DNA of 64,000 nt from an uncultured Clostridia bacterium (GCA_944372355.1 CALVYS010000001.1:32681-96680); one strand, 5' to 3'; counted from the first letter of the stretch, positions 46,687 to 60,639 are shown. Notes: a model not told the origin generated them from the sequence alone. Made by a program: numbers and translations.

Positions 46687-47061
46687 ATGAAAAAGTTAGA
46701 ATTTTTCAGATGCAATGTATGCGGAAACATCTGTGTCAAACTTCACGATTCCGGCGTTCCTGTTTTTTGCTGCGGGGCTCCAATGCAAAAGATCGAGCCA
46801 AACACTGTTGATGCCGCCAGTGAGAAACATAAACCGGTTGTCAAAATTGAAGGCGGAAGGGTTGATGTTCAAGTGGGAAGTGTGCTTCACCCTATGAGTG
46901 AAGAACATTACATAACAATGATTGTTTTGGAAACAAACAATGGCTTTTCAGTCAAGTATTTAGCTCCAACTGACGCCCCACAGGCAAGCTTCATGCTTTT
47001 AGGGGGCGAAAGCGTGAAAAGCGTGTATGCTTACTGCAACTTGCATGGATTGTGGAAATGA
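46687..47061 (+). CDS. dfx: desulfoferrodoxin (2Fe superoxide reductase)
   Basis: N-terminal desulforedoxin CNVCGN...FCCG and a C-terminal SOR domain (EKHKPV, HPMSEEHYI, CNLHGLW). Confidence 0.9.
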   Translation: MKKLEFFRCNVCGNICVKLHDSGVPVFCCGAPMQKIEPNTVDAASEKHKPVVKIEGGRVDVQVGSVLHPMSEEHYITMIVLETNNGFSVKYLAPTDAPQASFMLLGGESVKSVYAYCNLHGLWK

Positions 47062-47666
47062 AAATCAACCGCTTTAAAAATGTTGATGACATAAAAATCG
47101 ATTTTGAAAAATTTCCTGGTGAAAGCAAAATACTTTTTGTCACGGGATTGTCTGGCAGCGGAAAGAGTTGGACGGCGAGAGAACTTGCCGAAAGTTGCGG
47201 CGCCAGCATTTTTCAACCGGAATGGCTGATTCACTCCAAACATGTTTCGCAAGAGTTTAAGCCGTTGTTGGACGAGTTTTTGAGGGCAAATCCAGAAATA
47301 GTGCCATATGTTGAAAACAAATGGAATGATGTCAAAAATGAAGATGAGCACGAACTTTTAAAAAAATACATCAACATGTTTTTGCAATCATTTTTAGATT
47401 CATGTGACAAAAGCCGAACCTATATTGTTGAAGGGTTGCAAATTTTTACCCTCATCGATTTTGAAGTAGTAAAAAATTTTCCAATCATAGTGAAAGGCAC
47501 ATCAAGCTTTCAATCGTTAAGAAATCGACTTAAAAGAGATTTGCCAAAGCATAAAAACAAAACACATTACTTTTTTAAGGTTTTGAAACAAAGTCGTCTT
47601 TATCAATTTAAACATCGAAAAAAGTTAAATAATTTCTTAAAAAAGCTGAAAGACCAACTATTATAA
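47052..47666 (+). CDS. hypothetical P-loop NTPase/kinase-like protein
   Basis: Walker A at VTGLSGSGKSWTA. Otherwise unrecognised. A long hairpin terminator (47650-47686) spans its stop. Confidence 0.55.
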   Translation: MEMKINRFKNVDDIKIDFEKFPGESKILFVTGLSGSGKSWTARELAESCGASIFQPEWLIHSKHVSQEFKPLLDEFLRANPEIVPYVENKWNDVKNEDEHELLKKYINMFLQSFLDSCDKSRTYIVEGLQIFTLIDFEVVKNFPIIVKGTSSFQSLRNRLKRDLPKHKNKTHYFFKVLKQSRLYQFKHRKKLNNFLKKLKDQLL

Positions 47667-47793
47667 AAACAGTTGGTCTTTATTTTCCTAGCGTATAAGA
47701 ACAAGGATATAAATATTTTTATAAAAATGATAATTTTTTTTACATTACTTTATTAATTTAATGTGCTATAATAATATAAAGGGGGAAAATATT

Positions 47794-48381
47794 ATGCCTC
47801 AGTATATAAAAACCAAATCTGATTTACAAAAATTTTTAAATGTTGAATTAAAAATAATATCAAGGTATACGAATTTAAAATTATTAAAATGGTTTCCTAT
47901 TATTATTTACGAAGACCAAATCAAATATAGATTCATTAAAACACTTCGCAAGGCTGAGTACTTCACAAATTCAAACAAAAAGCTGCGGGGGTTTTTTTAC
48001 AGATTAAAATTTTTTCATTTACAAACTAAATATTGTTTAAATATACCGATGAATTGTTGTGATATCGGATTAAATATTGTTCATGTGGGCCCAATAATTA
48101 TAAATGACAATTGTTTAATTGGCAAAAATTTCAAAGTTAATGTCGGTGTAAACATTGGTAATAATGAATTTAAAAGCCATAATAAATGTCCTACAATTGG
48201 GGATAATGTGTTTATAGGGCCTGGTGCTAAGCTGTTTGGAGACATAATAATTGCAAACGGGTGTCGGATAGGAGCTAATGCGGTTGTAAATAAATCTCAT
48301 TTAATAGAAAATTCAACAATTGTTGGTGTGCCTGCAATTCAAAAAAATATTTTTTACAAAGGAAATGAAGATGAAAAATAA
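47794..48381 (+). CDS. left-handed beta-helix (hexapeptide) O-acetyltransferase, CysE/WcaB-like
   Basis: Hexapeptide repeats (IGKNFKVNVGVNIG...IGDNVFIGPGAKLFGDIIIANGCRIGANAVV). GGGGG SD, with a TGC-TATAAT promoter at 47764-47772. Confidence 0.8.
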   Translation: MPQYIKTKSDLQKFLNVELKIISRYTNLKLLKWFPIIIYEDQIKYRFIKTLRKAEYFTNSNKKLRGFFYRLKFFHLQTKYCLNIPMNCCDIGLNIVHVGPIIINDNCLIGKNFKVNVGVNIGNNEFKSHNKCPTIGDNVFIGPGAKLFGDIIIANGCRIGANAVVNKSHLIENSTIVGVPAIQKNIFYKGNEDEK

Positions 48382-49537
48382 GATATTAATAGTAGGTATG
48401 GGGTATGTGGGACTTGCTAATGCCCTGATGTTGTCACAAAAAAATGATGTAATAATATTTGATATTGATAAAATGAAGGTTTACAACTTTAATAGGGGAG
48501 TTCTTCCGCTTGGCGAAGATATGTATGAAACTTTTTACAATAAATACCGAGATAATATTATTGCGATTTCAGACGAATCACAAGCATTGTCTAATAAATA
48601 TGATTTTATTATTATTGCTTTGCCTACTGATTATGATCAAGATAAGAAGGCTTTTAATACTACATCAATAGAAGATTTGATTGTAAAAATTATCGACCAC
48701 AACATCGATACATGTATCGTTTTTAAGTCCACATTACCTATTGGATTTACACGTTTGATTAAAGAAAAATTTCAATATGATCAAATATTGGTTTCACCAG
48801 AATTTTTAAGAGAAAACAAAGCTTTATCAGACTGTTTAAATCCCTCTAGGATAGTTGTTGGTGGAAATAAGATCTATGCAATGAAATATGTAAAAATGTT
48901 AAAAAATGTTAGTAAAATTGAGAAAGAAAAGGTTTTTATAATGAATGAGACCGAGTCAGAAGCTGTTAAATTATTCTCCAATGCATATCTCGCAACAAGG
49001 GTATGTTTTTTTAATGAATTGGATAATTTTTCTTTAATTCATAATTTAGATGCAAAAACAATCATATCTGGAGTTTGTTCAGATCCTAGAATAGGAGATC
49101 ATTATAATAATCCATCTTTCGGTTTCGGCGGATATTGTTTGCCAAAAGACACCAAGCAGTTAGCAAACAATTATCCATATGCAGACAATTTGTTTTCCGC
49201 CGTATTAAACAATAATAATAAGAGAGCAGAAATCATTGCGCAAATTTTAAATCGTGATGATACTATAAAAACAATTGGTATTTACAAATTAGCAATGAAA
49301 AAGAGTTCGTATAACTGTAGAAATTCCGCTATTTTTAATATTATTAGCAAATTACAAAACAAAAATCTTATTGTATATGAACCATTAGATAAAACAAATT
49401 TTAATAATTTAAAAAGAATTGATGACTTATCGGTGTTTAAACAAATGTCTGATTTAATACTATGTAATAGATATGATGCATTGCTAGAAGATGTAAAATA
49501 CAAGGTTTTTACAAGAGATGTTTTTAATGAAAATTAG
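48371..49537 (+). CDS. ugd: UDP-glucose 6-dehydrogenase family protein
   Basis: KILIVGMGYVGLANA Rossmann fold and the catalytic-Cys motif GFGGYCLPKD. The ATG at 48365 is an alternative start. Confidence 0.85.
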   Translation: MKNKILIVGMGYVGLANALMLSQKNDVIIFDIDKMKVYNFNRGVLPLGEDMYETFYNKYRDNIIAISDESQALSNKYDFIIIALPTDYDQDKKAFNTTSIEDLIVKIIDHNIDTCIVFKSTLPIGFTRLIKEKFQYDQILVSPEFLRENKALSDCLNPSRIVVGGNKIYAMKYVKMLKNVSKIEKEKVFIMNETESEAVKLFSNAYLATRVCFFNELDNFSLIHNLDAKTIISGVCSDPRIGDHYNNPSFGFGGYCLPKDTKQLANNYPYADNLFSAVLNNNNKRAEIIAQILNRDDTIKTIGIYKLAMKKSSYNCRNSAIFNIISKLQNKNLIVYEPLDKTNFNNLKRIDDLSVFKQMSDLILCNRYDALLEDVKYKVFTRDVFNEN

Positions 49538-49563
49538 TTCAGGGTGTGTAAATAACATAAATA

Positions 49564-49592
49564 TTGACTTTTAAGCTATATTGTTGTATAAT
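49564..49592 (+). promoter_or_regulatory. consensus-like promoter in front of the ABC-F gene
   Basis: TTGACT, 17-nt spacer, TATAAT. It shows the listed 49564 start is inside the -35 box. Confidence 0.65.
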
Positions 49593-49611
49593 AACTACAG
49601 AGGTAGAGTCT

Positions 49612-51294
49612 ATGTTGATTTTGAATATTGACAAATTGAATAAAAACTTTGGGTACGGCAGTCTTTTTACAGACCTATCTTTTTCGTTAAATGAAGGAGA
49701 AGTTCTATCAATAGTTGGTCCCAATGGTTCTGGTAAATCTACTCTTTTAAAAATCATTGCGGGATTGGAAAGGCCAGACTCTGGCAAAGTAAATATTAAG
49801 AAAGGCGCAAACGTGGCATATCTTGATCAAAAGAGCGCTATCATAAGTGACAATAGAACAGTTTATGAAATACTTTTAGACGTTTTTGATGATTTAAATA
49901 AAATTAATCAACAAATACAAGAATTTGAAGACAAACTTGCATCGACATCCCCAGATGATAGCAACTACAATAATATTCTTGAAAAATATTGCGCTCTTAT
50001 GGAAAAGTTTTCAAACAATGGCGGATATGATATTGATGTGTCTATCAAAATGGTTGCAGACGGATTAGGTATATCTGAAGAAATGCTCTTACAAAATTAT
50101 AACAGTTTAAGCGGAGGAGAAAAAACCCTTGTTCAACTTGCTAGTTGTTTATTAAAAAAACCTAACTTGTTACTTCTTGATGAACCAACTAATAACTTAG
50201 ACATAAAAAAGATTGAATGGTTAGAAGATTTTATTAAGAGATATAAGGGGGCTATAATAACAATATCTCATGATAGATACTTTATTGATAGAACTTCATC
50301 TAAAATTTTAGAAATAGAGGCTGGAAAAAGTAAAATATTTTCAACAAACTATAGTGGCTATATAAAAGAGAAAGAGCGTGATTTTGAAAAAAATATGGCT
50401 CTTTATAAAGATCAGCAGGAACAGATTAAACACGATATAGAAATGTATAGATACTTTCTGAATCATAATTTTCCTGACAAAGCTAAATATTTTAGAGAAA
50501 AATATGAAAGAGAAATAAGAGAAGCTATTCCAAGGCCTAAAAAACCCAAAAAAATTGATTTTAATTTTGATTTGAATAGGAAATCTAGCAAAATAATAAT
50601 TAAAACAGATAACTTAACAGTTACGAGCCCTCAAAATAAGCCAATATTACAAAATATAAATGTACAGATTTGTGCTAATGAAAGAATTGCTCTTCTTGGT
50701 GATAACGGAAGCGGAAAATCTACTTTTATTAAATCTGTATTAGGACAACAAACATTGCCTGTATATGGCCAAATAACTATAGGTCCAAGCGTGCAAATCG
50801 GTTACTTGCCACAAGTTATTCATTATAATAATGAAAATGATAGTGTTCTTAAAACATTCGAATTTCAGTGCGGATTAGGTGAAGAAAAAAGCAGATCTGT
50901 TTTGTTTAGATTCGGTTTTAATCAAGAAGATGTGAATAAACTAATAAAAAATCTATCTGGAGGAGAAAGAGTAAAATTTAAATTAGCCGAGCTTATTCAA
51001 AAAGGAGTAAATACTTTAATACTAGATGAGCCTACCAATCATATTGACATACCGACAAGAGAATCTTTAGAGGAAGCTTTATCTGATTTTAATGGAACAT
51101 TAATATTTGTGTCGCATGATAGATATTTTATAGATAAATTTGCAAATAAAGTACTTGAGTTTAAAGATGGAAGCGTAAGGGCATATGATGGTGGCTATAA
51201 GTTTTATTTGTCCCAAAGAACAACAGATGCAGGACAATTGAAAAAAACAAAAAAAATAAATGTAAAAAACTATAACGAGGAAAGGGTTCTATAG
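49612..51294 (+). CDS. ABC-F family ATPase (two ABC domains, no TM domain)
   Basis: Two Walker A motifs (GPNGSGKST, GDNGSGKST), two LSGGE signatures, a charged interdomain linker and no membrane segments. Confidence 0.9.
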   Translation: MLILNIDKLNKNFGYGSLFTDLSFSLNEGEVLSIVGPNGSGKSTLLKIIAGLERPDSGKVNIKKGANVAYLDQKSAIISDNRTVYEILLDVFDDLNKINQQIQEFEDKLASTSPDDSNYNNILEKYCALMEKFSNNGGYDIDVSIKMVADGLGISEEMLLQNYNSLSGGEKTLVQLASCLLKKPNLLLLDEPTNNLDIKKIEWLEDFIKRYKGAIITISHDRYFIDRTSSKILEIEAGKSKIFSTNYSGYIKEKERDFEKNMALYKDQQEQIKHDIEMYRYFLNHNFPDKAKYFREKYEREIREAIPRPKKPKKIDFNFDLNRKSSKIIIKTDNLTVTSPQNKPILQNINVQICANERIALLGDNGSGKSTFIKSVLGQQTLPVYGQITIGPSVQIGYLPQVIHYNNENDSVLKTFEFQCGLGEEKSRSVLFRFGFNQEDVNKLIKNLSGGERVKFKLAELIQKGVNTLILDEPTNHIDIPTRESLEEALSDFNGTLIFVSHDRYFIDKFANKVLEFKDGSVRAYDGGYKFYLSQRTTDAGQLKKTKKINVKNYNEERVL

Positions 51295-51298
51295 AGTT

Positions 51299-52330
51299 AT
51301 GAAACGTGTTTATATGTCCACATACATTAGCGGATTTCACAGTGTAATAGAACAAATTCTGAAACAAAAAATTGGCGACGTTCAAATAATTAATAATATG
51401 GACGGTGCCATAATATATAAAAGTAATATAAATATACAAAATTTACATTTGCCTTTTTTTAATAATTCATTTTTGGTGATAGGATATGATTCTTGTAATC
51501 CAAAATTAGATTTTAATAAGTCAATCCAAAATTTCATTTTTAATAACAAATTTTCATTAGATAATGCAACAGATTATATAAATTTCAAGAAGGACAAAAC
51601 TTTTAAAATTCTTGGTATAGATAAAAATCAGCCCTCGTCATTAGATTATAAATTAGTTGAAAATATTGAAAAGAAAATACATCAATCATGCAGATTATCT
51701 GTTGCATTTAGAAAACATGATTTAGATTTTCTTTTTGTAAGAAGAACAGAGGGAATAATCTTATTTTTACTGAAAATAACATATAGTAGAACAACAGAAA
51801 AATTTTTAAATCAAGGAGAATTAAGGCCCGAACTTGCTTACATTCTTTCTTGGTTAGGCGATATTCAAAATCCAGATGTGGTTATGGATCCATTTTGCGG
51901 ACATGGTGCAATTCCTAAAGCAATCGTTAAAAATTTTCATTACAACATGTTGTTTGCAAGTGATTTAGATAAAAGTATGATCGACAAGTTAAAGTTGGAA
52001 TATAAAAACAATAAAAAAAATTTTTATATCAAACAAAGAGATGCAACAGATTTGTCATATTTTGAAAATAATTTTATAGATAAAATTATTACAGATCCCC
52101 CTTGGAATATATTTAACTCAAAGGATAATATAAATTATAAAATATTTTATGAGAAAGTTTTAAAAGAATTTTATCGCATTTTAAAACCAAATGGGACTTG
52201 TATTGTTTTGATGGGGAATGTTAAAGATTTTGAATATGCATTACATAAAGTTAAATTTATGCTCAAAGAACGATTCAATATTTTAGTTAATGGGAAAAAA
52301 GCTAATGTATATAAGTTAATTAAGACCTAA
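51299..52330 (+). CDS. class I SAM-dependent methyltransferase of the UPF0020/RlmL-Trm14-like (DPPW) type
   Basis: VMDPFCGHGAI (motif I) and IITDPPWN (motif IV), preceded by a ~170-aa THUMP-like N-terminal region. Lies 4 nt after the ABC-F stop. Confidence 0.7.
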   Translation: MKRVYMSTYISGFHSVIEQILKQKIGDVQIINNMDGAIIYKSNINIQNLHLPFFNNSFLVIGYDSCNPKLDFNKSIQNFIFNNKFSLDNATDYINFKKDKTFKILGIDKNQPSSLDYKLVENIEKKIHQSCRLSVAFRKHDLDFLFVRRTEGIILFLLKITYSRTTEKFLNQGELRPELAYILSWLGDIQNPDVVMDPFCGHGAIPKAIVKNFHYNMLFASDLDKSMIDKLKLEYKNNKKNFYIKQRDATDLSYFENNFIDKIITDPPWNIFNSKDNINYKIFYEKVLKEFYRILKPNGTCIVLMGNVKDFEYALHKVKFMLKERFNILVNGKKANVYKLIKT

Positions 52331-52543
52331 TACATTAGCTTTTTAAACATTCTTTTATCATCTCGTATATAATTTCATTGATTTTGTTATCTGTCATCCT
52401 ATTAAGCATTTGGGATAAAGTGCATAAGACTTGCGTTCTTCAATTATGTTTTAATTATTATAGAGCCAAATACAAAAGTTGCAATTTTTAATAAAGCCAT
52501 ATTTTTGTTAATATGATATACATTATGCATAGACTATTTCATA

Positions 52544-53701
52544 TTATTCATCTTTCACAAAGTCTCTAATAATTGGTTGCTTACGAACACCTTCCCATTT
52601 AAATCGTGTTGGTCTTTTTGAACAATATTTACAAAATGGGATTGCGTGGGATAATTTATCAATTAGCTCCCAACCGTTATTTGTAGTTGTAAGCTCATAA
52701 CAATCTCTTTTATTTACAATAAAATTGGTAGAAAATTTTTCATTTAATTTATAACATAAAAGGGGATAACAACATTTTGAAATAAGTCCATTGCGTACCA
52801 TCCAGCAAAACTTGCCATAACAATTTCCATATCCGGAATTTTTAATAGACTTTTTATTATTTAAAGTTAAACAAGTGTGGAATTCTTTAATGATGTCTTC
52901 ATTTGAATATTGTTTGTGTCCTTGTCCATAAAAATGCATAATTTTTTTATCGTTAAGATATTTTTCTATATTTGCGATATTTTTATATGTAGGTTCATAA
53001 ACAGTTATGTTTACAACAATGTTATTATCCTTTAGTGAATTGCATGTTTTTTCATTCATGCTTGGTATCAGCAAACCATTTGAAACTAGGAAGATTTTTG
53101 ATTTTGGGAATTTTTTTCTAACATAACAAATGTATCTATCTAGGTCGCTTGCAAGCAATGCTTCTCCGCCCATAAGTCTTATAATGGGAATATTATAATT
53201 TTTAGATAATAAATCGACATCTTTACAAAATTTTTCATAATCAGTTTCATTTTTTTCAAAAGTATTTGCAAAGTGTGTGCAGCCTTTACAGTTCAAATTA
53301 CATAAATCTGTAACGTGCATTTCAACATATTTCATTATTGGCTTTTCTTGTAGATTGTATATTTGGATGCATTCTTCTGATATCATTTTTCCGTTGAAAA
53401 GATTTGTTGATTCTTTAATCATTATATAAATTTTGTTATATCCTTCTTTAAACAAATCATAATAGAACTCATTTTTATATGGCATATCATCTAATATTAA
53501 TATTTCATCAAAAAGTTCTTTTTTTAACAATCTTGAACCAGCAATTTGATAAATTGGTAAGAGGTTGCCACTAGTTGATGATGACATGTTTGTTAATTTA
53601 CATGTAATAGAATAGTATTTATCTTGATTTATTTTTTTTATTATAGAATCTGCAAAACTATTTTCGCCAATTACGGCAATCCTTGTTCCTTTGTTAAACA
53701 T
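52544..53701 (-). CDS. radical SAM enzyme with an N-terminal ~135-aa extra domain and a Cys-rich C-terminal region
   Basis: The CNLNCKGC CX3CX2C motif follows VEMHVTDL. Additional C-terminal cysteines (CYGKFC, KCCYPLLC, FCKYC). Start chosen at the ATG at 53701 (GGAGGA SD), which overlaps the aminotransferase stop. Confidence 0.8.
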   Translation of the reverse strand: MFNKGTRIAVIGENSFADSIIKKINQDKYYSITCKLTNMSSSTSGNLLPIYQIAGSRLLKKELFDEILILDDMPYKNEFYYDLFKEGYNKIYIMIKESTNLFNGKMISEECIQIYNLQEKPIMKYVEMHVTDLCNLNCKGCTHFANTFEKNETDYEKFCKDVDLLSKNYNIPIIRLMGGEALLASDLDRYICYVRKKFPKSKIFLVSNGLLIPSMNEKTCNSLKDNNIVVNITVYEPTYKNIANIEKYLNDKKIMHFYGQGHKQYSNEDIIKEFHTCLTLNNKKSIKNSGYGNCYGKFCWMVRNGLISKCCYPLLCYKLNEKFSTNFIVNKRDCYELTTTNNGWELIDKLSHAIPFCKYCSKRPTRFKWEGVRKQPIIRDFVKDE

Positions 53702-55007
53702 TTGCAACAATCCTCCTTCCATACAAATAATCTTCAATAGATTTACATATAATATCAATTCCATGCTTAAATTCTTCTTCTGTTGTACAAATTGATGGCA
53801 TTAAGCATATTGCTTGACACATCTGGCTAACTATTAGTCCATTGTTCCTCAATCTTATATCAAAATCGGGAATATTTAAATCTGAATTTGTTTTAGGGTC
53901 AATTAATTCAATAGCTATCATCAAGCCAATTATTCTTATTTCTCCTATATATTCTTTATTTTTAAGATCTGAAAGAATATTTTTAAATACTTCTTCTTTT
54001 TGGTGAACAACATCTAATAGATTTTCATTTTTGATTATATTCAAAGTAACACTTCCACAAGTACAAGCTATAGGATGCCCACTATTCGTAAATCCATGTC
54101 TAAATTGACGATCTCTACGTTGCGATAAAAAAGTTTTGTAAATTTTTTCGGTTACTATGACACCTGCAAGTGGCTGAACTCCGTTTGAAATACCTTTACC
54201 GAACAAAATCATATCTGGATATATATTGTATTTCTGACATGCAAACATAAAACCAGTTCTGCCTGTTCCGCACGATATTTCATCGAAAATCACTATTATA
54301 TTGTTTTTATGACATAAATCAACAACCCCTTGTAACCATTTATTATCTGGTATTATAATACCACCAACTCCCATTATGGGCTCTAATATCAAAGCGCAAA
54401 TATTTTCGGCACCATAAAAATTTATTTGGTATTCAAGATCTTTTAGGCAAGCATAATGACATACACTTTTACTTAAACCCATTCGACATTTATAACAATA
54501 TTGAGGATAAATTTTTAAAGTGTCTTTTAATAGTGGATCAAATGGTATTCTGTCCCAAGGATCCCCAGATGCACTCATGGCACCCAATGTAGAACCATGA
54601 TAACTTTCATATAATGATATAACTCTTCTTTTATTACCTTTGTTCTTTGAATAAAAATGACCTCTTGCAAGTTTAATAGATGTTTCTACCGCTTCTGCTC
54701 CGCCAGATGTAAAAAATACATGTTTAAAATCATTTGGCAAATATCTCAGCAATTGATCTGCAAGTAGTTCTCCAGCTGAATGTTGAAATCTTATATTTGG
54801 GATATATTCAAATTGAGAAAGTTGTTTATTTATTTCTATTGCATATTCTTTTCTCCCATACCCTAAAATAGTATTCCAGGTTCCAGAATTTAAATCCAGG
54901 TACTCTTTACCATCCTCATCTATTATTTTATTTCCAAAAGCTTTTATAATTTTTTTTCTTTCAAAATACATTTGTGTTTCCGATGTCCAAAATTGTTTTG
55001 TGTCCAT
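53694..55007 (-). CDS. class-III (BioA-like) PLP aminotransferase
   Basis: SGGAEAVETSIKLAR, DEISCGTGRTG and the FGKGISNG Lys motif. Termini resemble BioA-type enzymes (FWTSETQM..., ...LMPSICTTEEEF). Confidence 0.85.
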   Translation of the reverse strand: MDTKQFWTSETQMYFERKKIIKAFGNKIIDEDGKEYLDLNSGTWNTILGYGRKEYAIEINKQLSQFEYIPNIRFQHSAGELLADQLLRYLPNDFKHVFFTSGGAEAVETSIKLARGHFYSKNKGNKRRVISLYESYHGSTLGAMSASGDPWDRIPFDPLLKDTLKIYPQYCYKCRMGLSKSVCHYACLKDLEYQINFYGAENICALILEPIMGVGGIIIPDNKWLQGVVDLCHKNNIIVIFDEISCGTGRTGFMFACQKYNIYPDMILFGKGISNGVQPLAGVIVTEKIYKTFLSQRRDRQFRHGFTNSGHPIACTCGSVTLNIIKNENLLDVVHQKEEVFKNILSDLKNKEYIGEIRIIGLMIAIELIDPKTNSDLNIPDFDIRLRNNGLIVSQMCQAICLMPSICTTEEEFKHGIDIICKSIEDYLYGRRIVANV

Positions 55008-55009
55008 AT

Positions 55010-55939
55010 TTATCCCCCATATTTTTTATCGTTTTTTAACATTTTTTTTAATATTGTTTTTCTGTTAATCCATATAAAATTTAATTTAAGTTTTAAGTTA
55101 AAAGAATGAGAGAGCTTTAAATATTCATTTTTAGCCTTATATGCCAAATCATCTTTATAAAGCCGAAGCAAGTCTAAAATTCGATTCTTATAATAATTGT
55201 ATTTTACCAGTTCTTTTTCCTTATTAGTTAATAAATTAAAATATCGTTGACACATTTCATAATAAATTTCATCAGCAATTAAGTTTTTTTCTGTTATGCC
55301 GGTTATTCCACTATTTTTATCATGTGCGTAATAAGTGACTAAATCTTCTTTTATTACGCCAATTTTATATCCGTTTGCAAGAAGCTTCAATAACACAACG
55401 CCATCTTGATGAGAATGGATAGATTCAAAACCTCCAATTTTAAGTAGTATGGATTTTTTGAGCATCCAAAAAGATGTCCCCGCAATGTTAAAACACATTT
55501 GAATGGCTAAAGGATTTCCTTCATGACTGGTATTTTCCATTTCTTTTTGACCATTTGGATAAATAATAGTCCCATAACAATACACTAATGATATTGAATT
55601 GTTTTCGTTTAAATAAGAAATTTGTTTTTCAATTTTGTTCGGTTTAAATTCATCATCATCGTCAAGAAAAGCAACAAATTCTGCAGAAGCGTGTTTAACC
55701 CCGACATTTCTAGCTTGTGCTCCACCTAGATGCAAACTTTTAGTAATAAATTTTACATCTGGATATTCGCAATCTATTTTTTCTTTTATTTTATTCCTAA
55801 AAGAAAGATCCTCATAATTATCATCAACAACGATAATCTCTATGTTTTTGTAGGATTGATTTTTAACACTATCTATAGCTCTAAAAAGGGTGTCAAATCT
55901 TTGATATGTGGGGATTATTACACTAACTTTATCCATCAT
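55010..55939 (-). CDS. family-2 glycosyltransferase
   Basis: VSVIIPTYQRFDTLFRAIDSVKNQSYKNIEIIVVDD...FLDDDDE. Confidence 0.85.
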   Translation of the reverse strand: MMDKVSVIIPTYQRFDTLFRAIDSVKNQSYKNIEIIVVDDNYEDLSFRNKIKEKIDCEYPDVKFITKSLHLGGAQARNVGVKHASAEFVAFLDDDDEFKPNKIEKQISYLNENNSISLVYCYGTIIYPNGQKEMENTSHEGNPLAIQMCFNIAGTSFWMLKKSILLKIGGFESIHSHQDGVVLLKLLANGYKIGVIKEDLVTYYAHDKNSGITGITEKNLIADEIYYEMCQRYFNLLTNKEKELVKYNYYKNRILDLLRLYKDDLAYKAKNEYLKLSHSFNLKLKLNFIWINRKTILKKMLKNDKKYGG

Positions 55940-55942
55940 TTA

Positions 55943-56803
55943 TTATCCTTTAAAATTTTTTAATGAGTTTATTTTATTTTTTAAAAACGGATTCAAAAGT
56001 TTTATCTTATAATCTTGTAATCCGTAACAAAATGAAAAATTTAATTTTTTTCTGTTACAATAATTTATAATTTTTACATAGTTATAAATCCCAAGAGATA
56101 AAGATTTATAATATTTGTCCCACCAAAAAATGCAGTAATATAATGTATTCGTTTCTTTGCTTTCATAGACAATACCCTCTGCAATAGATATACCTTGTGA
56201 ATTTATTAAGCTAATTGTATGAAAATTATCGGTACTGTAAAAGTAATTATATGCAGCTATTGCATCTTTGGAAAAATTTTTGTTAAATTTTTCATTACAG
56301 TATTTATTCCAATGTTTTAAAACATTTGGAACGGTAACATTATCAACTTTTAAGCTTATTAAACAATCGTTGCGCCTTATCAAATAACTGTATTTTTTTT
56401 GAAATTTCAAATAATTAAAATCCTCATTAACGGAACACGCTATAAAATCTCCATATGTGGCTAAATTTATAAGATGCCCACTTGCTGCATAATCCAAGTG
56501 ACTTAATAATAATTTTATAAAACTTTTTTCATAATTTAATGGGAAGTGATATGAAAAAGTTATTTCATATTGATTTCCAAACTTATCTGTTAACTTTTTA
56601 ATGTTAAAAGAAATTGCCAATAAAACAATACATTCACTTTTGTTAAACTTATCTTTAATTTTGTCTATTTCTAAAGTATCAATATGTTTTGTTTTTTCTT
56701 GTAGCAAGTCAACAACATCAATATTTTTGTTAATTTTTTTGCCATTGATAAAAATGTCTTCATCAATTACTTGAATCTTTAAGCCCTTACTGCTCAAAAA
56801 CAT
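55943..56803 (-). CDS. hypothetical, C-terminal half resembles CelD/BioF2/FemAB-like GNAT acyltransferases
   Basis: ...GISIAEGIVYE...SLSLGIYNYVKIINYC...FSFCYGLQDYKIKL matches the fDfg.G...YK end motif of Acetyltransf_6-type proteins (from memory). Start chosen at the ATG at 56803 (GAGGTG SD). Confidence 0.5.
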   Translation of the reverse strand: MFLSSKGLKIQVIDEDIFINGKKINKNIDVVDLLQEKTKHIDTLEIDKIKDKFNKSECIVLLAISFNIKKLTDKFGNQYEITFSYHFPLNYEKSFIKLLLSHLDYAASGHLINLATYGDFIACSVNEDFNYLKFQKKYSYLIRRNDCLISLKVDNVTVPNVLKHWNKYCNEKFNKNFSKDAIAAYNYFYSTDNFHTISLINSQGISIAEGIVYESKETNTLYYCIFWWDKYYKSLSLGIYNYVKIINYCNRKKLNFSFCYGLQDYKIKLLNPFLKNKINSLKNFKG

Positions 56804-57572
56804 TTTTTGCACCTCTAAATAACCAAACTCTAACAGTATGTTCGGGAGCATATTTATATGTTAAGTCTTCTAATTGTTGTAAACGCTGAATTTCATTTTT
56901 CCACAAAATATGTAGCTGAGAACGATAAAATTTAATTGCATTGAGTTTTATGTGCCAATTTTTTTCTGAAACTTTTATCAAATTGAATTCCATATCTTGC
57001 CCCCAATTTGATTTCTTTCTAGATTTATAATAATAGCATACATAGGGCACGTCTTCATAGAAATAGATTGGTTTTTTTATTATTTTTGATGCCATCACAG
57101 CGGCCCTATGGAGAATTGTATGGTCTGCATGTGAACCTAATCCCATGGGCGCAAAAATAATATCAGCATCTGCAACTTCAATCTCTATACGCTTACTTAT
57201 ATCCTTGGTCAATTCATTGTCTTCATTCTTCAAGTGATAAATTTCTTTCAAATTAGGGTATAAAATCGCGCCTTTATTGTTTTTTCTATATAGGCATTCA
57301 TAATAACCTAGATGTTTATACTTGCAATTTAACCAGTTGAGAGCTGCAATGTCTTCATTTGACCTAAAGTCCATTGATTTATGGTCAAGAAAACAATTGC
57401 TATGAAATTGTTTTGCTGCCGCTGAGAGGTCTTTTTCGTCTGGGCATCCCGTAAAAAATGTGATCACACATACATCATCGCCTTGCTCGGTAAACTTATC
57501 AATTAATTCTCCACATGACAACACACAATCATCAAAATGAGGCCCTAAAAAGACTATTTTCTTCATAATCAT
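56787..57572 (-). CDS. PIG-L/LmbE-family N-acetylglucosaminyl deacetylase
   Basis: FLGPHFDDCVLSCGE and HADH metal-binding motifs. ATGA overlap with the GT4 stop. Confidence 0.8.
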   Translation of the reverse strand: MIMKKIVFLGPHFDDCVLSCGELIDKFTEQGDDVCVITFFTGCPDEKDLSAAAKQFHSNCFLDHKSMDFRSNEDIAALNWLNCKYKHLGYYECLYRKNNKGAILYPNLKEIYHLKNEDNELTKDISKRIEIEVADADIIFAPMGLGSHADHTILHRAAVMASKIIKKPIYFYEDVPYVCYYYKSRKKSNWGQDMEFNLIKVSEKNWHIKLNAIKFYRSQLHILWKNEIQRLQQLEDLTYKYAPEHTVRVWLFRGAKNVFEQ

Positions 57573-58756
57573 CTCCTGATAATCTGTTGATAGACTTTAT
57601 CAATTTTATTCTTCATATCTACTATATTAAATTTTTCTTTAATAGTTTTTTTTGCATTTTGAGAGATCTCTTTTAATTTTGAATCATTGCTAATTAATTC
57701 GATTACTACTTTGGACATAGTCTCATAGTCTCCCTTGTTTACTAATATCCCGTTTGATCCATCTATTATTTCGTGAAGGCCACCTACATTTGTGGCTATT
57801 ACAGGAATTCCTGCCGCCATGGCTTCTAAAACGCACCTTGGAGTGCCTTCGGTATCAGAGGTTAGCAATAACATATCAATAGAGGAATAAATAATATCAA
57901 CAGGATCTATAACTCCAATAAAGTTAATTTTATTTTGCAAGCGCTTGTTCTTTACTAATGTTTGCAGGATAGGCAACTCATCTCCACTTCCCACTACAAT
58001 AAAGTTTAAATTAGATTTACTTTTTAAAATATTCTCACAACATGTTATAAATCCATCAACTCTTTTTTCTGGTGCCAAACGTCCAATATATGCTATCGTT
58101 TTGTAATTATTGTTAATATTGTGTTCATGCTTAAATTCTTTTACATCTTTTAATTGGTAATGTTCTGGAGTTTTAACACCATTTTTAATATTAAATAAAA
58201 GTTTTTTACGATATTTCTTTTTCGCCTCTAATCTTTTTAAATCTTTTTCACAAACAGTTATTAAGGATTGAGCAACAGCGTATGATGCAAAATCCAGCAT
58301 TGTATAAAATTTATCTTTTATGTTATTTTCAATCCAGCCATGGCATGTCATAACCGTTGGAATTTTTCCGTATGTATGTACATATTTCTTTTTTAATGCA
58401 TAGGTTAGATAATTCGCATTGTATTGGTGACTATGAATAACTTTTATATGATTTAAAAAAGAAATTTTGCCCAATGATTTTAATATTCTACTGATGTTCT
58501 TTTCACGAACGCAACTTATATAGCCTATGTTATTCATTTGTAATTTCTCTTCATACTCTGGATTTCTACAAAATAAAACCACAGGTTTTAATCCCGGTGT
58601 CTCCCTTTGAACAATTGATAGGTGCAAAACATGTGTGTCAGAACCTCCAATTCTTCCTGCTGGTTGTGGGACGATTACTTGTAACACCAAATCTTGATTT
58701 TCGTAATCGTCAGGAATATTTATTTTCAAGTTATCAATATTGTATATCATATTCAC
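57569..58756 (-). CDS. GT-B fold family-4 glycosyltransferase
   Basis: C-terminal EGTPRCVLEAMAAGIPVIATNVGGLHEII signature. Confidence 0.9.
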   Translation of the reverse strand: MNMIYNIDNLKINIPDDYENQDLVLQVIVPQPAGRIGGSDTHVLHLSIVQRETPGLKPVVLFCRNPEYEEKLQMNNIGYISCVREKNISRILKSLGKISFLNHIKVIHSHQYNANYLTYALKKKYVHTYGKIPTVMTCHGWIENNIKDKFYTMLDFASYAVAQSLITVCEKDLKRLEAKKKYRKKLLFNIKNGVKTPEHYQLKDVKEFKHEHNINNNYKTIAYIGRLAPEKRVDGFITCCENILKSKSNLNFIVVGSGDELPILQTLVKNKRLQNKINFIGVIDPVDIIYSSIDMLLLTSDTEGTPRCVLEAMAAGIPVIATNVGGLHEIIDGSNGILVNKGDYETMSKVVIELISNDSKLKEISQNAKKTIKEKFNIVDMKNKIDKVYQQIIRR

Positions 58757-59733
58757 CTCATATTATTAATAATTTCTTCTAACACGGTTTTATTGTTTAT
58801 CTTAATTGCTTTATTTAATAATTTTGTGGCAGTAATATAATCTTTACCGTACGCAATGCTAATTGCTTCTTTTAAAAAGAATTTAGCACGATTATTTTTT
58901 ATAATAGCATTGTTGACATTTGGGAACCTTTTGAAATAAACCTTTTCTGCCTTTTTAAAACCATTCACATCGGTTTTGGCCTTTAATTTGTAAAAATTTT
59001 TAATCTTGGCTCGTGAGGAACTATCTGTATTAATTTTGATTCGATATAAAGTTTCGCATCCTTTTAAGAAGACAAATTTTCCACTATGTGCTCCATACCT
59101 CAACCAGGTGTGGGAGTCTTCGGAAACTCGTTTAATTGGAAATTTTTCCATATATGCTAAGGATGTTTTTACTGAAGTGGCAGAAGTTAAATTAGTATAG
59201 TTTTTTTTCAGCGCTATTTTTAACCATGAATTTTCTCCTTCAACAATGTCTGATTTGTGTCCATCCAATATTTCCTTGATAGAATCGCATAAATTTTTTT
59301 CTGGCACGAGATTATCAAACTCATCTATTACTTTAAACGAAGAATAAACTACATTGACTTTAGGGTCGTCGAAAATTTTCCTTGTTTCCCTTAATCTATC
59401 TTTATTAGAGATGTCGTCTGAATCATTGTACAATATAAATGGGCACCTAAGCTTATAAGCCATTTCTATACCAATATTCCTTGAAAAACCTGGTCCTTTA
59501 TTCTTTTTATTTGATAATACAATAACCCGGGAATCTTTTAAAGCGATTTTATCAAGATAATGTTTTATGGATTTATCTTTTGAGCAATCATCAATAATTA
59601 TCAATATTAAATTTTTATCGCTTTGATTTAAGATGGATTTTATACTTTTTTCTAAAACTGGCCGAAAATCATTCATATTATCTGTAAAAACTGGCATTAT
59701 AAATGCGGCTGTTTTATCGTTTATCATTTTCAT
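58753..59733 (-). CDS. family-2 glycosyltransferase
   Basis: AAFIMPVFTDN...LILIIIDDCSKD...YNDSDD. Start chosen at the ATG at 59733 after GGAGA. Confidence 0.8.
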   Translation of the reverse strand: MKMINDKTAAFIMPVFTDNMNDFRPVLEKSIKSILNQSDKNLILIIIDDCSKDKSIKHYLDKIALKDSRVIVLSNKKNKGPGFSRNIGIEMAYKLRCPFILYNDSDDISNKDRLRETRKIFDDPKVNVVYSSFKVIDEFDNLVPEKNLCDSIKEILDGHKSDIVEGENSWLKIALKKNYTNLTSATSVKTSLAYMEKFPIKRVSEDSHTWLRYGAHSGKFVFLKGCETLYRIKINTDSSSRAKIKNFYKLKAKTDVNGFKKAEKVYFKRFPNVNNAIIKNNRAKFFLKEAISIAYGKDYITATKLLNKAIKINNKTVLEEIINNMR

Positions 59734-60564: not shown

Positions 60565-60639
60565 TGGTGCTCCCGTCAGGGCTCGAACCCGAACTAATGG
60601 TTCCGAAGACCATTGTGCTATCCATTACACCACGAGAGC
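60565..60639 (-). tRNA. tRNA-Arg (anticodon UCG), CCA encoded
   Basis: Hand-folded. Acceptor GCTCTCG/CGGGAGC, D arm GTGT-AATGGATA-GCAC, anticodon arm ATGGT-CTTCGGA-ACCAT, T arm TCGGG-TTCGAGC-CCTGA. Confidence 0.9.

Follow-up and report, generated by a model that had tools for sequence, protein, structure and literature searches.

Producers of 50S-targeting antibiotics classically pair an ABC-F ATPase with an rRNA methyltransferase in the biosynthetic cluster: TlrC with TlrA/B/D, CarA with CarB, SrmB with SrmA and LmrC with LmrB. Known aminoglycoside producers rely on FmrO-type 16S methylases and are not known to use THUMP enzymes or ABC-Fs. Among aminoglycoside biosynthetic modules, BtrM/BtrD carry out GlcNAc transfer and de-N-acetylation, BtrB/NeoB are class-III aminotransferases, and BtrN and SpeY are twitch radical-SAM dehydrogenases.

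Two further systems resemble the one described here. In rlmL-uup, found in E. coli and many other bacteria, the genes for a THUMP/UPF0020 guanine-N2 rRNA methyltransferase and an ABC-F lie on the same strand and are co-transcribed. EmtA (23S rRNA (guanine2470) methyltransferase), encoded on Enterococcus faecium plasmids, confers resistance to avilamycin and evernimicin as a lone resistance gene beside an IS element.

We have analysed a 64,000-nt stretch of DNA from an uncultured Clostridia bacterium (the window), in which an ABC-F gene and an RNA methyltransferase gene (the pair) lie among genes for sugar and amino-sugar chemistry. Like the producer pairs, this is a ribosome-binding ABC-F with an RNA methyltransferase, inherited within sugar and amino-sugar tailoring genes. 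It differs from them in methyltransferase class (THUMP m2G, where theirs are Erm or RlmA-type) and in its hosts, which are anaerobic gut Firmicutes.

Layout and promoter of the pair

The ABC-F gene (49612..51294, + strand) encodes 560 aa and ends with a TAG at 51292-51294; 4 nt later, at 51299, comes the ATG of the methyltransferase gene (51299..52330, + strand; 343 aa, DPPW motif), the spacing that the sequence-only reading of this DNA had reported. The junction is also tight in relatives, with a 9-nt gap in loci L007 and L089 and a 4-nt overlap in L113. Both are real genes, since both have strong homologues (bit scores of the best up to 1238 for the ABC-F and 761 for the methyltransferase). 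A GAGGT lies 8-12 nt upstream of the ABC-F ATG. A longer, TTG-started open reading frame from 49564, whose start falls on the -35 box, is not the ABC-F gene: homologues and database gene calls begin at MLILN.

The sigma-70-like promoter assigned to the two genes by consensus match alone, TTGACT-17 nt-TATAAT (49564..49592, + strand), is intergenic, lies where the sequence-only reading placed it and is near-consensus (score 11/12). It is the top match within 46.5-61.2 kb, tied by one intragenic minus-strand site. In DNA this rich in AT, promoter-like matches are frequent (106, where shuffles lead one to expect 87±10), and the motif by itself is therefore weak evidence. Between the end of the -10 box at 49592 and the ATG at 49612 there is room for a leader of about 20 nt, not for an attenuator-type one; the long 5′ leader with an attenuator or uORF that is characteristic of inducible AREs is thus missing from the ABC-F gene.

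The ABC-F belongs to a cassette-specific clade

The ABC-F contains two ABC_tran domains and an ABC_tran_Xtn linker, that is, the two nucleotide-binding domains (NBDs) and helical linker of the ABC-F family, with no hydrophobic segment. Walker A, signature, Walker B-Glu and H-loop are found in both halves and both catalytic glutamates are kept; the protein has two intact ATPase sites. It has an NBD1 arm and a short linker, which measures 140 residues from H-loop 1 to Walker A2. The corresponding lengths are 168 in VgaA, 171 in MsrA and 160 in a Streptomyces ARE-like protein, and 136-138 in EttA, YdiF and OptrA; the protein therefore lacks the extended linker (160-171 residues) of AREs that reach into the peptidyl-transferase centre. 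The short-linker AREs OptrA and PoxtA, along with EttA and YdiF, resemble it in their NBD1 arm, linkers of 136-147 residues and catalytic glutamates. However, it is just 27-38% identical to them, is separate in the tree and passes no specific model.

The ABC-F scores far under the cut-off of every specific ARE model (Vga, Lsa, Msr, Sal, OptrA, CplR and TlrC/CarA/OleB/SrmB), for example 321 against 800 for ABCF_producer NF000171, 314 against 780 for CplR and 310 against 725 for Vga. It passes only the broad NF000355, as does a stand-alone relative. The scores are likewise below the housekeeping equivalog cut-offs for EttA (383/599), Uup (333/900), YbiT-type (318/762) and YheS-type (276/917) proteins, and identity to these housekeeping types is 28-30%. 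In our tree its family stands apart both from the AREs and from the housekeeping ABC-Fs, and by sequence we assign it to an uncharacterised Clostridia ABC-F family.

Within that family, the cassette ABC-Fs form one clade (100% bootstrap) in which the L094 protein branches basally; the sister is a clade whose two checked members stand alone. All five directly read contexts in the cassette clade (the window, L007, L011, L089 and L113) include the methyltransferase and the sugar operon, and for four more members this context is implied indirectly only. In every case read, no ABC-F of the clade was seen without the cassette. Classification against the ARE and housekeeping types, as proposed earlier, thus separates two expectations: the placement away from a housekeeping locus holds, whereas membership in a named ARE subfamily does not, with a linker of 140 residues and no attenuator leader.

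The methyltransferase is a predicted THUMP-type RNA guanine-N2 enzyme

The methyltransferase has a UPF0020 domain call. Its DPPW motif (residues 266-269, within T265-D-P-P-W269) and its SAM motif (D197-x-F199-x-G201) are invariant in 36 homologues, and together they give the motif I plus motif IV (D/N)PP(F/W/Y) combination of THUMP guanine-N2 methyltransferases. Foldseek matches its AF2 model (pLDDT 92) to TrmN and Trm14 over the full length (TM 0.75-0.77). The layout is that of THUMP-type enzymes, an N-terminal ferredoxin-like and THUMP region followed by a class-I methyltransferase domain, and the family profile reaches the N-terminal domain of 3LDU. We predict a THUMP-type SAM-dependent RNA guanine-N2 methyltransferase, with an RNA substrate favoured because of the THUMP fold. 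The protein identities given in the sequence-only reading were right for both genes, and examination of the N-terminal domain, which it had recommended, places the enzyme with RNA methyltransferases rather than with DNA or small-molecule ones.

The tRNA m2G6 enzymes TrmN (Thermus) and Trm14 (Pyrococcus) are its best whole-chain structural relatives and its best solved relatives by sequence, although it is only 15-17% identical to them. To our knowledge, neither is linked to ABC-F or sugar genes. The closest characterised relative is EmtA, which hhalign aligns with the methyltransferase family profile over 332 of ~340 columns (probability 99.7, E 3.5e-27). The two have the same length, share an N-terminal domain followed by a Rossmann methyltransferase domain, and are carried on mobile DNA of gut Firmicutes. 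They differ in sequence (~20-25% identity), in motif IV (TNLPF in EmtA, TDPPW here) and in setting, here a biosynthetic cassette, and our enzyme stays far under the EmtA family model NF033398 (58 bits against a cut-off of 625).

We found the methyltransferase family in 396 stretches among 185,579 species genomes. Non-cassette members have a GC content lower than their flanks in 20 of 21 loci. Both findings suggest that the gene behaves as an accessory one. Cassette methyltransferases are intermixed with non-cassette ones of similar identity and form no separate subfamily.

The comparison with rlmL-uup is one of arrangement. Gene order there is the reverse, and the E. coli genes are chromosomal housekeeping genes, not mobile biosynthetic cargo. 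The ABC-F is 28% identical to Uup, and the hhalign match to RlmL is weak and covers the catalytic domain only (E 2.5e-4). The two systems are analogous, not orthologous.

Sugar and amino-sugar genes of the island

The pair lies in a low-GC island (47052..60564, unstranded) delimited by GC contrast: 0.25-0.30 inside, 0.42-0.44 in the flanking genes. The island, a horizontally acquired cassette plus spacers, spans ~13 kb and adjoins a tRNA-Arg and a conjugation gene. Upstream of the pair on the + strand are two variable accessory genes, for a hexapeptide (CysE/WcaB-like) acetyltransferase (47761..48381) and a member of the UDP-glucose 6-dehydrogenase (UGDH) family (48371..49537). Elsewhere the acetyltransferase gene is found in L007, L011 and L113, persists as a frameshifted remnant in L094 and is absent from L006 and L089.

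Downstream, a seven-gene operon runs on the - strand. It opens with a GT2 glycosyltransferase (58753..59733), whose counterpart is fused to the GT4 in L094, followed by a retaining, BshA-like GT4 glycosyltransferase of GlcNAc type (57569..58750), to which BshA is the nearest solved match and TarM-type and other wall-polymer GT4s are weaker ones. Next come a PIG-L/LmbE-type GlcNAc de-N-acetylase (56787..57566; nearest solved, the Dbv21/Orf2* pseudoaglycone deacetylases), a 286-aa protein (55943..56803) that we tentatively call a probable Fem-like (aminoacyl-tRNA-dependent) GNAT-fold transferase, and a second GT2 (55010..55939). The last two genes encode a class-III (omega-transaminase/BioA-like) aminotransferase (53694..55007) and a twitch radical-SAM dehydrogenase-like enzyme with an extra N-terminal domain (52544..53701), whose model (pLDDT 93) has as top fold matches SpeY (E 1.5e-14) and BtrN, both names being taken from PDB descriptions. 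These two genes overlap by 8 nt, and the radical-SAM enzyme is translationally coupled to the aminotransferase.

The logic of the cassette looks like that of an oxygen-independent, aminoglycoside-type pseudo-oligosaccharide pathway that would glycosylate, deacetylate, oxidise an alcohol and transaminate. It shares with aminoglycoside modules the GT4 plus PIG-L deacetylase and the SpeY/BtrN-like enzyme coupled to a class-III aminotransferase, and differs from them in its two extra GT2s and Fem-like protein; identity in the fold alignments is 13-16%. Among the island proteins there is no DHQ-synthase-like, FmrO, APH or AAC domain of the kind that defines 2-deoxystreptamine clusters, and no 2-deoxy-scyllo-inosose synthase or other cyclitol-forming enzyme. 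Nor does the island have the flippase, ABC exporter, polymerase or membrane priming transferase of a surface polysaccharide locus, and none of its 12 proteins has a credible transmembrane segment. The earlier proposal that the island makes a translation-targeting glycoside has thus gained support in one part, an aminoglycoside-like glycoside, from the radical-SAM enzyme with its aminotransferase, the BshA-like GT4, the Dbv21-like deacetylase and the absence of membrane proteins.

The pair is inherited with the cassette

The core operon (BshA-like GT4, PIG-L deacetylase, probable Fem-like protein, SpeY/BtrN-like radical-SAM enzyme, class-III aminotransferase and GT2s) occurs with the methyltransferase in eight independent loci: the window, L006/L010, L007, L011, L089, L094, L096 and L113. 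The methyltransferase is kept with it in all eight and the ABC-F in six, two cassette versions lacking the ABC-F. In L094 the genes stand in a new order within a single operon (methyltransferase, PIG-L, Fem-like, GT2, aminotransferase, ABC-F, GT2/GT4 fusion, radical-SAM). Across loci the identities of the methyltransferase and ABC-F drop in step with those of the other cassette genes, and in the window both genes have the GC content of the island. This co-localisation and co-inheritance is what is seen for self-resistance genes embedded in clusters. The pair belongs integrally to the mobile cassette and is inherited with it, and the link to the sugar island drawn from sequence alone is borne out by their retention and co-divergence. 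Across the loci read, the cassette is not consistently accompanied by an exporter or a regulator.

The methyltransferase is also found with a second glyco/radical-SAM cassette, which has another organisation and includes a Fem-like GNAT, and it accompanies GT4/PIG-L genes in CPR bacteria. The cassette is rare and horizontally mobile in gut anaerobes. Related cassettes lie on contigs of uniform 26-29% GC; nearby mobility genes include, at separate loci, a resolvase, transposases with Gabija-like genes, and ParB with a helicase.

Possible roles of the pair

As inherited parts of a cassette that resembles an aminoglycoside-type sugar pathway, the pair probably shields or tunes the cell's own translation machinery. 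The best single reading, which we offer tentatively and at less than even confidence, is that of a putative portable immunity module against a translation-interfering amino-sugar glycoside from the cassette. The glycoside would be assembled in the cytoplasm. The methyltransferase would install m2G in rRNA, as EmtA does at 23S G2470, or possibly modify the tRNA acceptor stem, as TrmN and Trm14 do. Bound at the ribosomal E site, the ABC-F would use ATP to bring the P-site tRNA and the peptidyl-transferase centre back into place in ribosomes perturbed by the drug, acting indirectly in the manner of OptrA and PoxtA, without reaching into the drug site. Expression would be tied to biosynthesis by position: in the window the pair's own promoter lies 3′ of the acetyltransferase and UGDH genes, and in L094 the pair is inside the biosynthetic operon.

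Several observations were counted against self-protection: the want of a conserved exporter or regulator, of a specific ARE model, of an attenuator leader and of a cyclitol enzyme; the 140-residue linker; the two ABC-F-less cassettes; the intermixed methyltransferases; the translation-gene neighbours; rlmL-uup; and the FmrO-type methylases of known aminoglycoside producers.

Self-protection competes with a role as general translation factors because, outside the gut clade, the methyltransferase family adjoins EF-P (five loci in two phyla), SelB-like and BipA genes, a Trp/Tyr-type tRNA synthetase gene and thiI, and because of rlmL-uup in E. coli. The pair could be a counterpart in Firmicutes of rlmL-uup or of the methyltransferase-EF-P neighbourhoods, with the RNA modification and the E-site factor jointly sustaining ribosome function or assembly, and could travel as a benefit to any host or as an aid to expressing an AT-rich cassette, with no tie to the target of the product. 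The adjacency and co-transcription of rlmL and uup, the neighbouring EF-P, SelB-like and BipA genes, the short housekeeping-like linker with no attenuator, and the mixing of cassette with non-cassette methyltransferases agree with this, as does the functional redundancy of EF-P and ABC-Fs as stall-relief factors (PMC10895253, PMC11381351). We nevertheless find it doubtful: it leaves unexplained why the pair stayed in the biosynthetic operon when that was reshuffled (L094), why cassette ABC-Fs have a clade of their own that is never without the cassette where read, and why the methyltransferase accompanies a second glyco/radical-SAM cassette and CPR GT4/PIG-L genes. Neither more nor less doubtful is a biosynthesis centred on tRNA, in which the Fem-like enzyme would use aminoacyl-tRNA to aminoacylate the deacetylated amino sugar, the methyltransferase would mark or tune the donor tRNA so that ribosome and pathway share it, and the ABC-F would buffer translation against the drain. 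The tRNA acceptor end is where THUMP domains dock and where TrmN and Trm14, the best structural matches, methylate G6; the methyltransferase gene overlaps the end of thiI, the gene of another THUMP tRNA enzyme, in L025 and lies 3′ of a Trp/Tyr-type tRNA synthetase gene in L029; a Fem-like GNAT also comes with it in the second cassette type; and its being more constant than the ABC-F is accounted for. The Fem-like orthologues match Acetyltransf_6 (4/6), FemAB (1/6) and ATE_C (2/6), but this is a weak assignment: the copy in the window matches no Pfam model, the sequence search turned up no solved relative, and profile comparison of the two Fem-like sets gives E 0.15. Moreover, the cassette was found to have no dedicated tRNA gene, the part given to the ABC-F is ad hoc, and no biosynthetic pathway known to us has a tRNA methyltransferase of its own.

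EarP adds rhamnose to EF-P, and in animals the queuosine of tRNA receives its sugar from enzymes of the GT4 and GT2 families. By analogy, the cassette might place a modified amino sugar on a tRNA or rRNA nucleoside or on a factor such as EF-P, with the methyltransferase and ABC-F acting on the same substrate. All its enzymes are soluble, there is no exporter, an RNA-binding enzyme and a ribosome-binding ATPase constantly accompany the glycosyltransferases, and the methyltransferase family adjoins EF-P elsewhere; yet no cassette contains a substrate gene (efp, tRNA or rRNA), a rare, mobile accessory cassette is unlike core translation-factor modification, and its enzymes are nearest to ones that act on small molecules; we consider this reading decidedly unlikely. 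Improbable, too, is a locus for cell-surface glycan decoration (e.g. of wall teichoic acid, or protein glycosylation at the cytoplasmic face) with the pair as syntenic baggage of a low-GC donor lineage. The TarM-type and other wall-polymer GT4s among the weaker matches suit it, such pathways have soluble GT2 and GT4 enzymes, and UGDH and acetyltransferase genes are typical of polysaccharide loci. The island has, however, neither a flippase nor a polymerase, priming transferase or membrane protein of any kind; the SpeY/BtrN-like dehydrogenase, aminotransferase and Dbv21-like deacetylase are natural-product-type enzymes; and baggage would not outlast the L094 rearrangement or recur with a second cassette type. 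Most improbable is that the pair was acquired independently, as resistance to external antibiotics or as a DNA-methylation defence module such as MADS, even though emtA is the sole plasmid-borne methyltransferase relative found and PADLOC matches mad3 (191 bits) and mad2 (70 bits). The earlier alternative, that the pair is a resistance cassette acquired on its own, is rejected because its GC content is that of the island and it co-diverges with the operon; nor was it ever seen alone on a resistance element, and the THUMP fold points to RNA as the substrate. MADS was discarded as a candidate: mad2 is an RM-type DNA N6-methylase matched in the catalytic half only, the mandatory mad6-8 are absent, and the matches are of generic domains.

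One broader possibility, which we consider unlikely, is that the cassette makes no free antibiotic and is a mobile system working on or through translation-machinery RNA: either an aminoacyl-tRNA-dependent amino-sugar pathway with its own tRNA-marking THUMP methyltransferase, or one that puts a modified hexosamine on a translation factor or on a nucleoside of tRNA or rRNA, the ABC-F being the partner on the ribosome side. If true, bacteria would have a glycosylation system directed at the translation apparatus and spread by conjugative elements.

Island edges

At the left edge, a P-loop NTPase-like open reading frame (47052..47666, + strand; GC 0.34) with weak AAA_22/16/18 matches only is found in this lineage only and is missing from the other cassette loci; it is unlikely to be a core cassette gene. 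The right boundary is a tRNA-Arg(TCG) gene (60565..60639, - strand), a possible integration site, and a 20-nt segment inside it recurs exactly at 60797-60816. Beyond it lies a gene for a VirD4/TraG-type type-IV coupling protein (61052..63040, + strand), a conjugative-element context, and L113 has the same kind of neighbour together with a MobL relaxase. Two further promoter-like elements on the - strand, one in the convergent spacer and antisense into the methyltransferase gene (52457..52484), the other 5′ of the seven-gene operon (60104..60131), have their spacer and -10 box in common.

Genomic setting of the ABC-F and methyltransferase genes

The island covers about 13 kb of the window (47.05-60.56 kb) and has a GC content of 0.25-0.30, against 0.42-0.44 in the flanking genes for desulfoferrodoxin, Ham1 and a coupling protein. 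Its plus strand carries, in this order, genes for a P-loop ORF, a hexapeptide acetyltransferase and a UDP-glucose dehydrogenase (the latter two at 47761-49537), the ABC-F and the methyltransferase. Converging on these from the minus strand is a seven-gene operon (52544-59733) encoding a GT2, a GT4, a PIG-L deacetylase, a 286-aa protein (55943-56803), another GT2, a class-III aminotransferase and a radical-SAM enzyme. The right edge is marked by a tRNA-Arg(TCG) gene (60565-60639), followed by the gene of a VirD4-type (CD1115-type) coupling protein. All twelve island proteins lack a credible membrane segment, and there is no flippase, polymerase, priming transferase, exporter, cyclitol synthase or 16S methylase among them. 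Besides the boundary tRNA-Arg, no dedicated tRNA, riboswitch or leader RNA was found in the island, and no convincing pair of direct repeats was found between its two edges.

The ABC-F ORF (49612-51294, plus strand; stop codon TAG at 51292-51294) opens with an ATG preceded by GAGGT, and a 343-aa methyltransferase ORF (51299-52330, plus strand) starts 4 nt past its stop. The promoter, both ORFs and their junction thus lie where the sequence-only reading had placed them. The promoter is a sigma-70-like consensus match, TTGACT-17 nt-TATAAT (49564-49592, plus strand); it is correctly positioned and its score of 11/12 is the best in 46.5-61.2 kb, equalled by one intragenic site. DNA this AT-rich yields many such matches (106 seen, 87±10 expected), and the motif is therefore suggestive only. 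At about 20 nt, the ABC-F leader is too short for an attenuator. Pfam and NCBIfam find two ABC domains with an ABC-F linker in the first protein and a UPF0020 domain in the second, in which DPPW (266-269) and SAM motif I are unchanged across 36 homologues.

The methyltransferase is predicted to act on RNA

The AlphaFold model of the methyltransferase, built with 36 homologues (pLDDT 92, pTM 0.90), aligns along its entire length with TrmN and Trm14 (TM 0.75-0.77), tRNA m2G6 methyltransferases in which a ferredoxin-like N-terminal domain and a THUMP domain are joined to a class-I methyltransferase. Weaker matches follow to Trm11, YpsC/RlmL-like proteins and RlmKL, and sequence profiles concur. 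The nearest characterised relative by sequence is EmtA, a plasmid-borne 23S rRNA G2470 methylase that confers avilamycin and evernimicin resistance (hhalign probability 99.7, E 3.5e-27, full length over 332 columns); at 58 bits against a cut-off of 625, the protein falls outside the EmtA family proper. E. coli RlmL is matched weakly (E 2.5e-4). This kinship in fold and profile to TrmN, Trm14 and EmtA predicts an RNA guanine-N2 methyltransferase and not a DNA or small-molecule enzyme. The earlier assignment to the RNA-type enzymes is upheld by both the superposition and the EmtA match, and the THUMP fold suspected for the N-terminal part is supported by the TrmN/Trm14 alignment.

The ABC-F belongs to a lineage of its own

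The ABC-F passes the broad NCBIfam model NF000355 ('ribosomal protection-like ABC-F'), which we rejected as evidence for an antibiotic-resistance (ARE) function: a stand-alone chromosomal relative clears it just as the cassette-linked ones do, so it does not discriminate. No named ARE model is passed, and neither are the EttA, Uup, YbiT-type or YheS-type models. The best annotated relative is a 642-aa Staphylococcus aureus ABC-F encoded beside rex (38% identity), which we take to be of the YdiF type.

In a bootstrapped neighbour-joining tree the cassette-linked ABC-Fs form one clade (100% support), with a large ABC-F clade from Clostridia as its sister (97%); both members of the latter that were checked (n=2) are stand-alone. 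The ABC-F of a divergent cassette locus, L094, is basal to the two clades (100%). The whole family stands apart from EttA, YbiT, Uup, YheS and YdiF as well as from OptrA, PoxtA, Vga, Msr and a Streptomyces ARE-like protein. Between the H-loop of NBD1 and the Walker A motif of NBD2 the linker spans 140 residues, a length shared with housekeeping ABC-Fs and OptrA (136 in EttA; 138 in YdiF, Uup, YheS and OptrA; 139 in YbiT) and below the 160-171 of long-linker AREs; the NBD1 arm is present. Of the two checks proposed earlier, phylogeny places the protein apart from housekeeping types and AREs alike, and linker length groups it with the short-linker proteins. OptrA and PoxtA protect ribosomes indirectly, and if the window ABC-F is protective it, too, would have to act indirectly, because its linker is short. 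Of its suggested standing as an ARE candidate, the two-domain ABC-F identity holds; the named models, the tree and the 140-residue linker speak against the ARE part.

Biosynthetic character of the cassette

The GT4 is nearest to BshA, which transfers GlcNAc onto a small-molecule acceptor, and the PIG-L enzyme to Dbv21 and Orf2*, which deacetylate glycopeptide pseudoaglycones. The model of the radical-SAM enzyme (pLDDT 93) has SpeY as its top match (E 1.5e-14, TM ~0.7), an enzyme that the PDB describes as a twitch radical-SAM dehydrogenase, with BtrN next. The cassette's radical-SAM gene overlaps that of the class-III aminotransferase, which suggests a route from alcohol through ketone to amine. 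Distant members of the radical-SAM family (P0335, P0354, P0358, P0352 and P0357) are fused to GT2 or WecF-type (Glyco_transf_56) glycosyltransferase domains, and these fusions support a sugar as the probable substrate.

The 286-aa protein is tentatively a Fem-like aminoacyl-tRNA-dependent transferase: its orthologues match Acetyltransf_6 (4/6), FemAB (1/6) or ATE_C (2/6), while the window copy has no Pfam match. Aligned with an Acetyltransf_6 protein from a second type of cluster (described below) it gives an hhalign E of 0.15, and neither profile has a solved-structure relative by sequence. As a set, the cassette enzymes parallel BtrM/BtrD, BtrN or SpeY, and BtrB/NeoB of aminoglycoside pathways. 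A literature search returned no description of the cassette or of a pairing of an ABC-F, a THUMP methyltransferase and glycosyltransferases, and nothing on aminoacyl-tRNA together with LmbE and radical SAM, on 7WZV or SpeY, or on gut aminoglycoside clusters.

The pair is inherited with the cassette

Independent look-ups from the ABC-F, the methyltransferase and the radical-SAM protein retrieved the core operon in eight independent loci: that of the window (L001-L005, several samples), L006/L010, L007/L008, L011, L089, L094, L096 and L113/L114. The methyltransferase is retained in all eight and the ABC-F in six; in L113 the two genes overlap by 4 nt. First-tier loci are 52-59% identical to the window in the methyltransferase, 66-70% in the ABC-F and 36-72% in the other genes, and L094 is 41%, 38% and 36-56% identical, respectively, so that identities drop in step across the pair and the rest of the cassette. 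L094 is a single co-directional operon in a different order: methyltransferase, PIG-L, Acetyltransf_6-like protein, GT2, aminotransferase, ABC-F, GT2/GT4 fusion and radical SAM. Co-inheritance, and retention through this reordering, lead us to reject both simple hitch-hiking of the pair and the alternative raised in the sequence-only reading, an independently acquired resistance cassette. Scanning JGI metagenomes with the radical-SAM profile gave nothing of use, just a single 2-kb contig (L093).

All the related loci fall within 26-29% GC, and the cassette therefore looks native to low-GC gut and rumen Clostridia and Bacilli and imported into the window's host of about 42% GC, whose desulfoferrodoxin and CD1115-type coupling protein point to an anaerobe-like Firmicute. 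Mobile contexts recur: a coupling protein, MobL and a LexA-like repressor in L113, a resolvase in L007, the coupling protein and tRNA-Arg in the window, ParB and a helicase in L089, and transposases with Gabija-like genes in L096.

The wider METHYLTRANSFERASE family

A survey of 185,579 species genomes gave 396 relatives of the methyltransferase, and the patterns below are those among the 80 that were listed. A second cluster type (L018-L023, L026 and L037), found in hosts from Oscillospiraceae and uncultured Bacilli (Firmicutes) through to a Patescibacterium, ends with the same methyltransferase family and has no ABC-F. It comprises two GT1s, a CE4 deacetylase, an rSAM-SPASM protein, a GT2, a homologue of the window's radical-SAM protein, an Acetyltransf_6/Fem-like protein, an SDR, a GH97-like protein, the methyltransferase and a NUDIX protein. 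Elsewhere, PIG-L lies immediately 3' of the methyltransferase (L028 and L030) and a cassette-type GT4 neighbours it in two CPR loci. Cassette methyltransferases form no separate clade and are mixed with solo copies, for example from gut Alphaproteobacteria. In 20 of 21 non-cassette loci the gene is lower in GC than its flanks. Solo copies (L012-L017, L035 and others) likewise have a lower GC than the contigs around them, the gap reaching 0.13 in a Paenibacillaceae contig of 57% GC, and this consistent offset suggests that the gene moved horizontally on its own, repeatedly.

Beyond the gut clade, it is translation genes that recur beside the methyltransferase. Four Thermoanaerobaculia loci and one Caldilineaceae locus have EF-P adjoining it, four Chloroflexota loci (L073, L077, L078 and L083) have a SelB-like GTPase gene directly 3' of it, and BipA is close by in two CPR loci (L057 and L062). 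Upstream genes encode a Trp/Tyr-type tRNA synthetase in L029 and IscS-ThiI in L025. We also note an efp neighbour in one CPR locus (efp loci: L038, L043, L049, L056, L060 and L076). A housekeeping instance of the same kind of pairing is found in E. coli K-12 (1007844-1011871), where rlmL, for the THUMP 23S m2G2445 methylase, is followed after 11 nt by uup, for an ABC-F; in the literature the two genes are adjacent in many bacteria and co-transcribed in E. coli. EF-P and ABC-Fs overlap in function as stall-relief factors (PMC10895253, PMC11381351). From these neighbourhoods, rlmL-uup and the EF-P/ABC-F overlap, the family can be read as a translation-apparatus enzyme, repeatedly partnered with factors at the E site and on P-site tRNA.

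Possible roles of the pair

Very probably, the two genes make up a module that is directed at translation and forms an integral part of a mobile amino-sugar cassette working in the cytoplasm. As to its purpose, we infer that producer immunity is the likeliest, and we hold this tentatively. The pairing of an ABC-F with an rRNA methylase is classical in antibiotic producers, the enzymes are natural-product-like, and co-inheritance, mobility and the kinship to EmtA fit as well. However, an exporter and a leader are missing, the ABC-F linker is short, some cassette versions lack the ABC-F, and the methyltransferase family behaves in a housekeeping-like manner. Two further roles are possible, each rather unlikely: one centred on tRNA, beside the Fem-like enzyme, which the TrmN/Trm14 fold would suit and which leans on a tentative Fem assignment, and one in general translation support by analogy with rlmL-uup, in keeping with the family's translation-gene neighbours.

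Glycosylation of a translation component, which would bring the glycosyltransferases and the pair onto one target, is doubtful, somewhat more so than either of these. That the cassette is a surface glycan locus with the pair as syntenic baggage is improbable; a UDP-glucose dehydrogenase and an acetyltransferase are typical of polysaccharide loci, but the membrane machinery is missing and the pair persists across loci. An independent resistance or defence module, for which EmtA kinship might speak, is very improbable given the linkage. Whether ribosome-directed genes embedded in a cluster or an rlmL-uup-like pair, the module would be of a known kind, and there is a modest chance of something categorically new.

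Should the pair serve immunity, uncultured low-GC Firmicutes of gut and rumen would carry a family of oxygen-independent, aminoglycoside-like biosynthetic clusters that has not been described before. These would move on conjugative elements with built-in resistance genes, among them a relative of emtA (clinical avilamycin resistance) and a new ABC-F lineage. They would offer a source of translation inhibitors that are new, and ribosome-protection genes would have in them a natural reservoir and an origin. Should its role lie instead in a tRNA-dependent step or in modifying the translation machinery, the pair would reveal a new link among RNA modification, E-site factors and glycosylation. Either way, the recurring pairing of a THUMP m2G methyltransferase with an E-site factor, be it the ABC-F of the cassette, Uup of E. 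coli or EF-P of other phyla, offers a testable clue to the roles of many ABC-Fs.

Further features of the island and related loci

PADLOC matches to mad3 and mad2 reflect features that ABC ATPases and amino-methyltransferases share in general, and mad6-8 are not present; a MADS defence system was rejected. A 20-nt stretch inside the tRNA-Arg gene (60599-60618) recurs exactly at 60797-60816, 198 nt rightward toward the coupling-protein gene, and looks like a scar of mobile-element integration at this tRNA. Two minus-strand promoter-like sites share a spacer and -10 box (CTTTTGTATTTGGCT[C/A][T/C]ATAAT), their likeness being limited to about 24 nt. One (60104-60131) is upstream of the seven-gene operon; the other (52457-52484), in the spacer where the two gene sets converge, is directed antisense into the methyltransferase gene, and the two sites could serve co-regulation or antisense control. 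The P-loop NTPase-like ORF (47052-47666, 204 aa), possibly a small kinase, overlaps the end of the desulfoferrodoxin gene, is intermediate in GC (0.34) and is restricted to this lineage's version of the island.

Among related loci, L094 carries frameshifted fragments of a hexapeptide acetyltransferase, a decayed accessory gene, between the ABC-F and the GT2/GT4 fusion (7303-7848), and L113 an extra 430-aa radical-SAM gene (12751-14043) between the methyltransferase and the usual radical-SAM gene. L009 (3144-5181), where a 59% identical methyltransferase adjoins a truncated aminotransferase (residues 153-428 only) and a weak GT2-like match, with no further core-operon gene above the 50%-coverage threshold, is probably a degraded cassette remnant. 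Beside the cassette lie a UvrD helicase with an OLD-type ATPase-TOPRIM pair (Gabija-like) and a DEAD helicase in L096 (16630-21155), and an AAA_15/21 ATPase, an ADP-ribosylglycohydrolase, DUF488, ParB and an SLFN-like helicase in L089 (1-8378), which hints that it lodges in defence or mobile islands. In L111 (2525-8713) a sister-clade ABC-F without the cassette has a UDP-glucose dehydrogenase, a 501-aa class I/II aminotransferase, a nucleoside 2-deoxyribosyltransferase and a MazG-like gene upstream and integrase fragments on its 3' side; accessory islands of sugar or nucleotide genes other than the cassette may also carry members of this ABC-F family.
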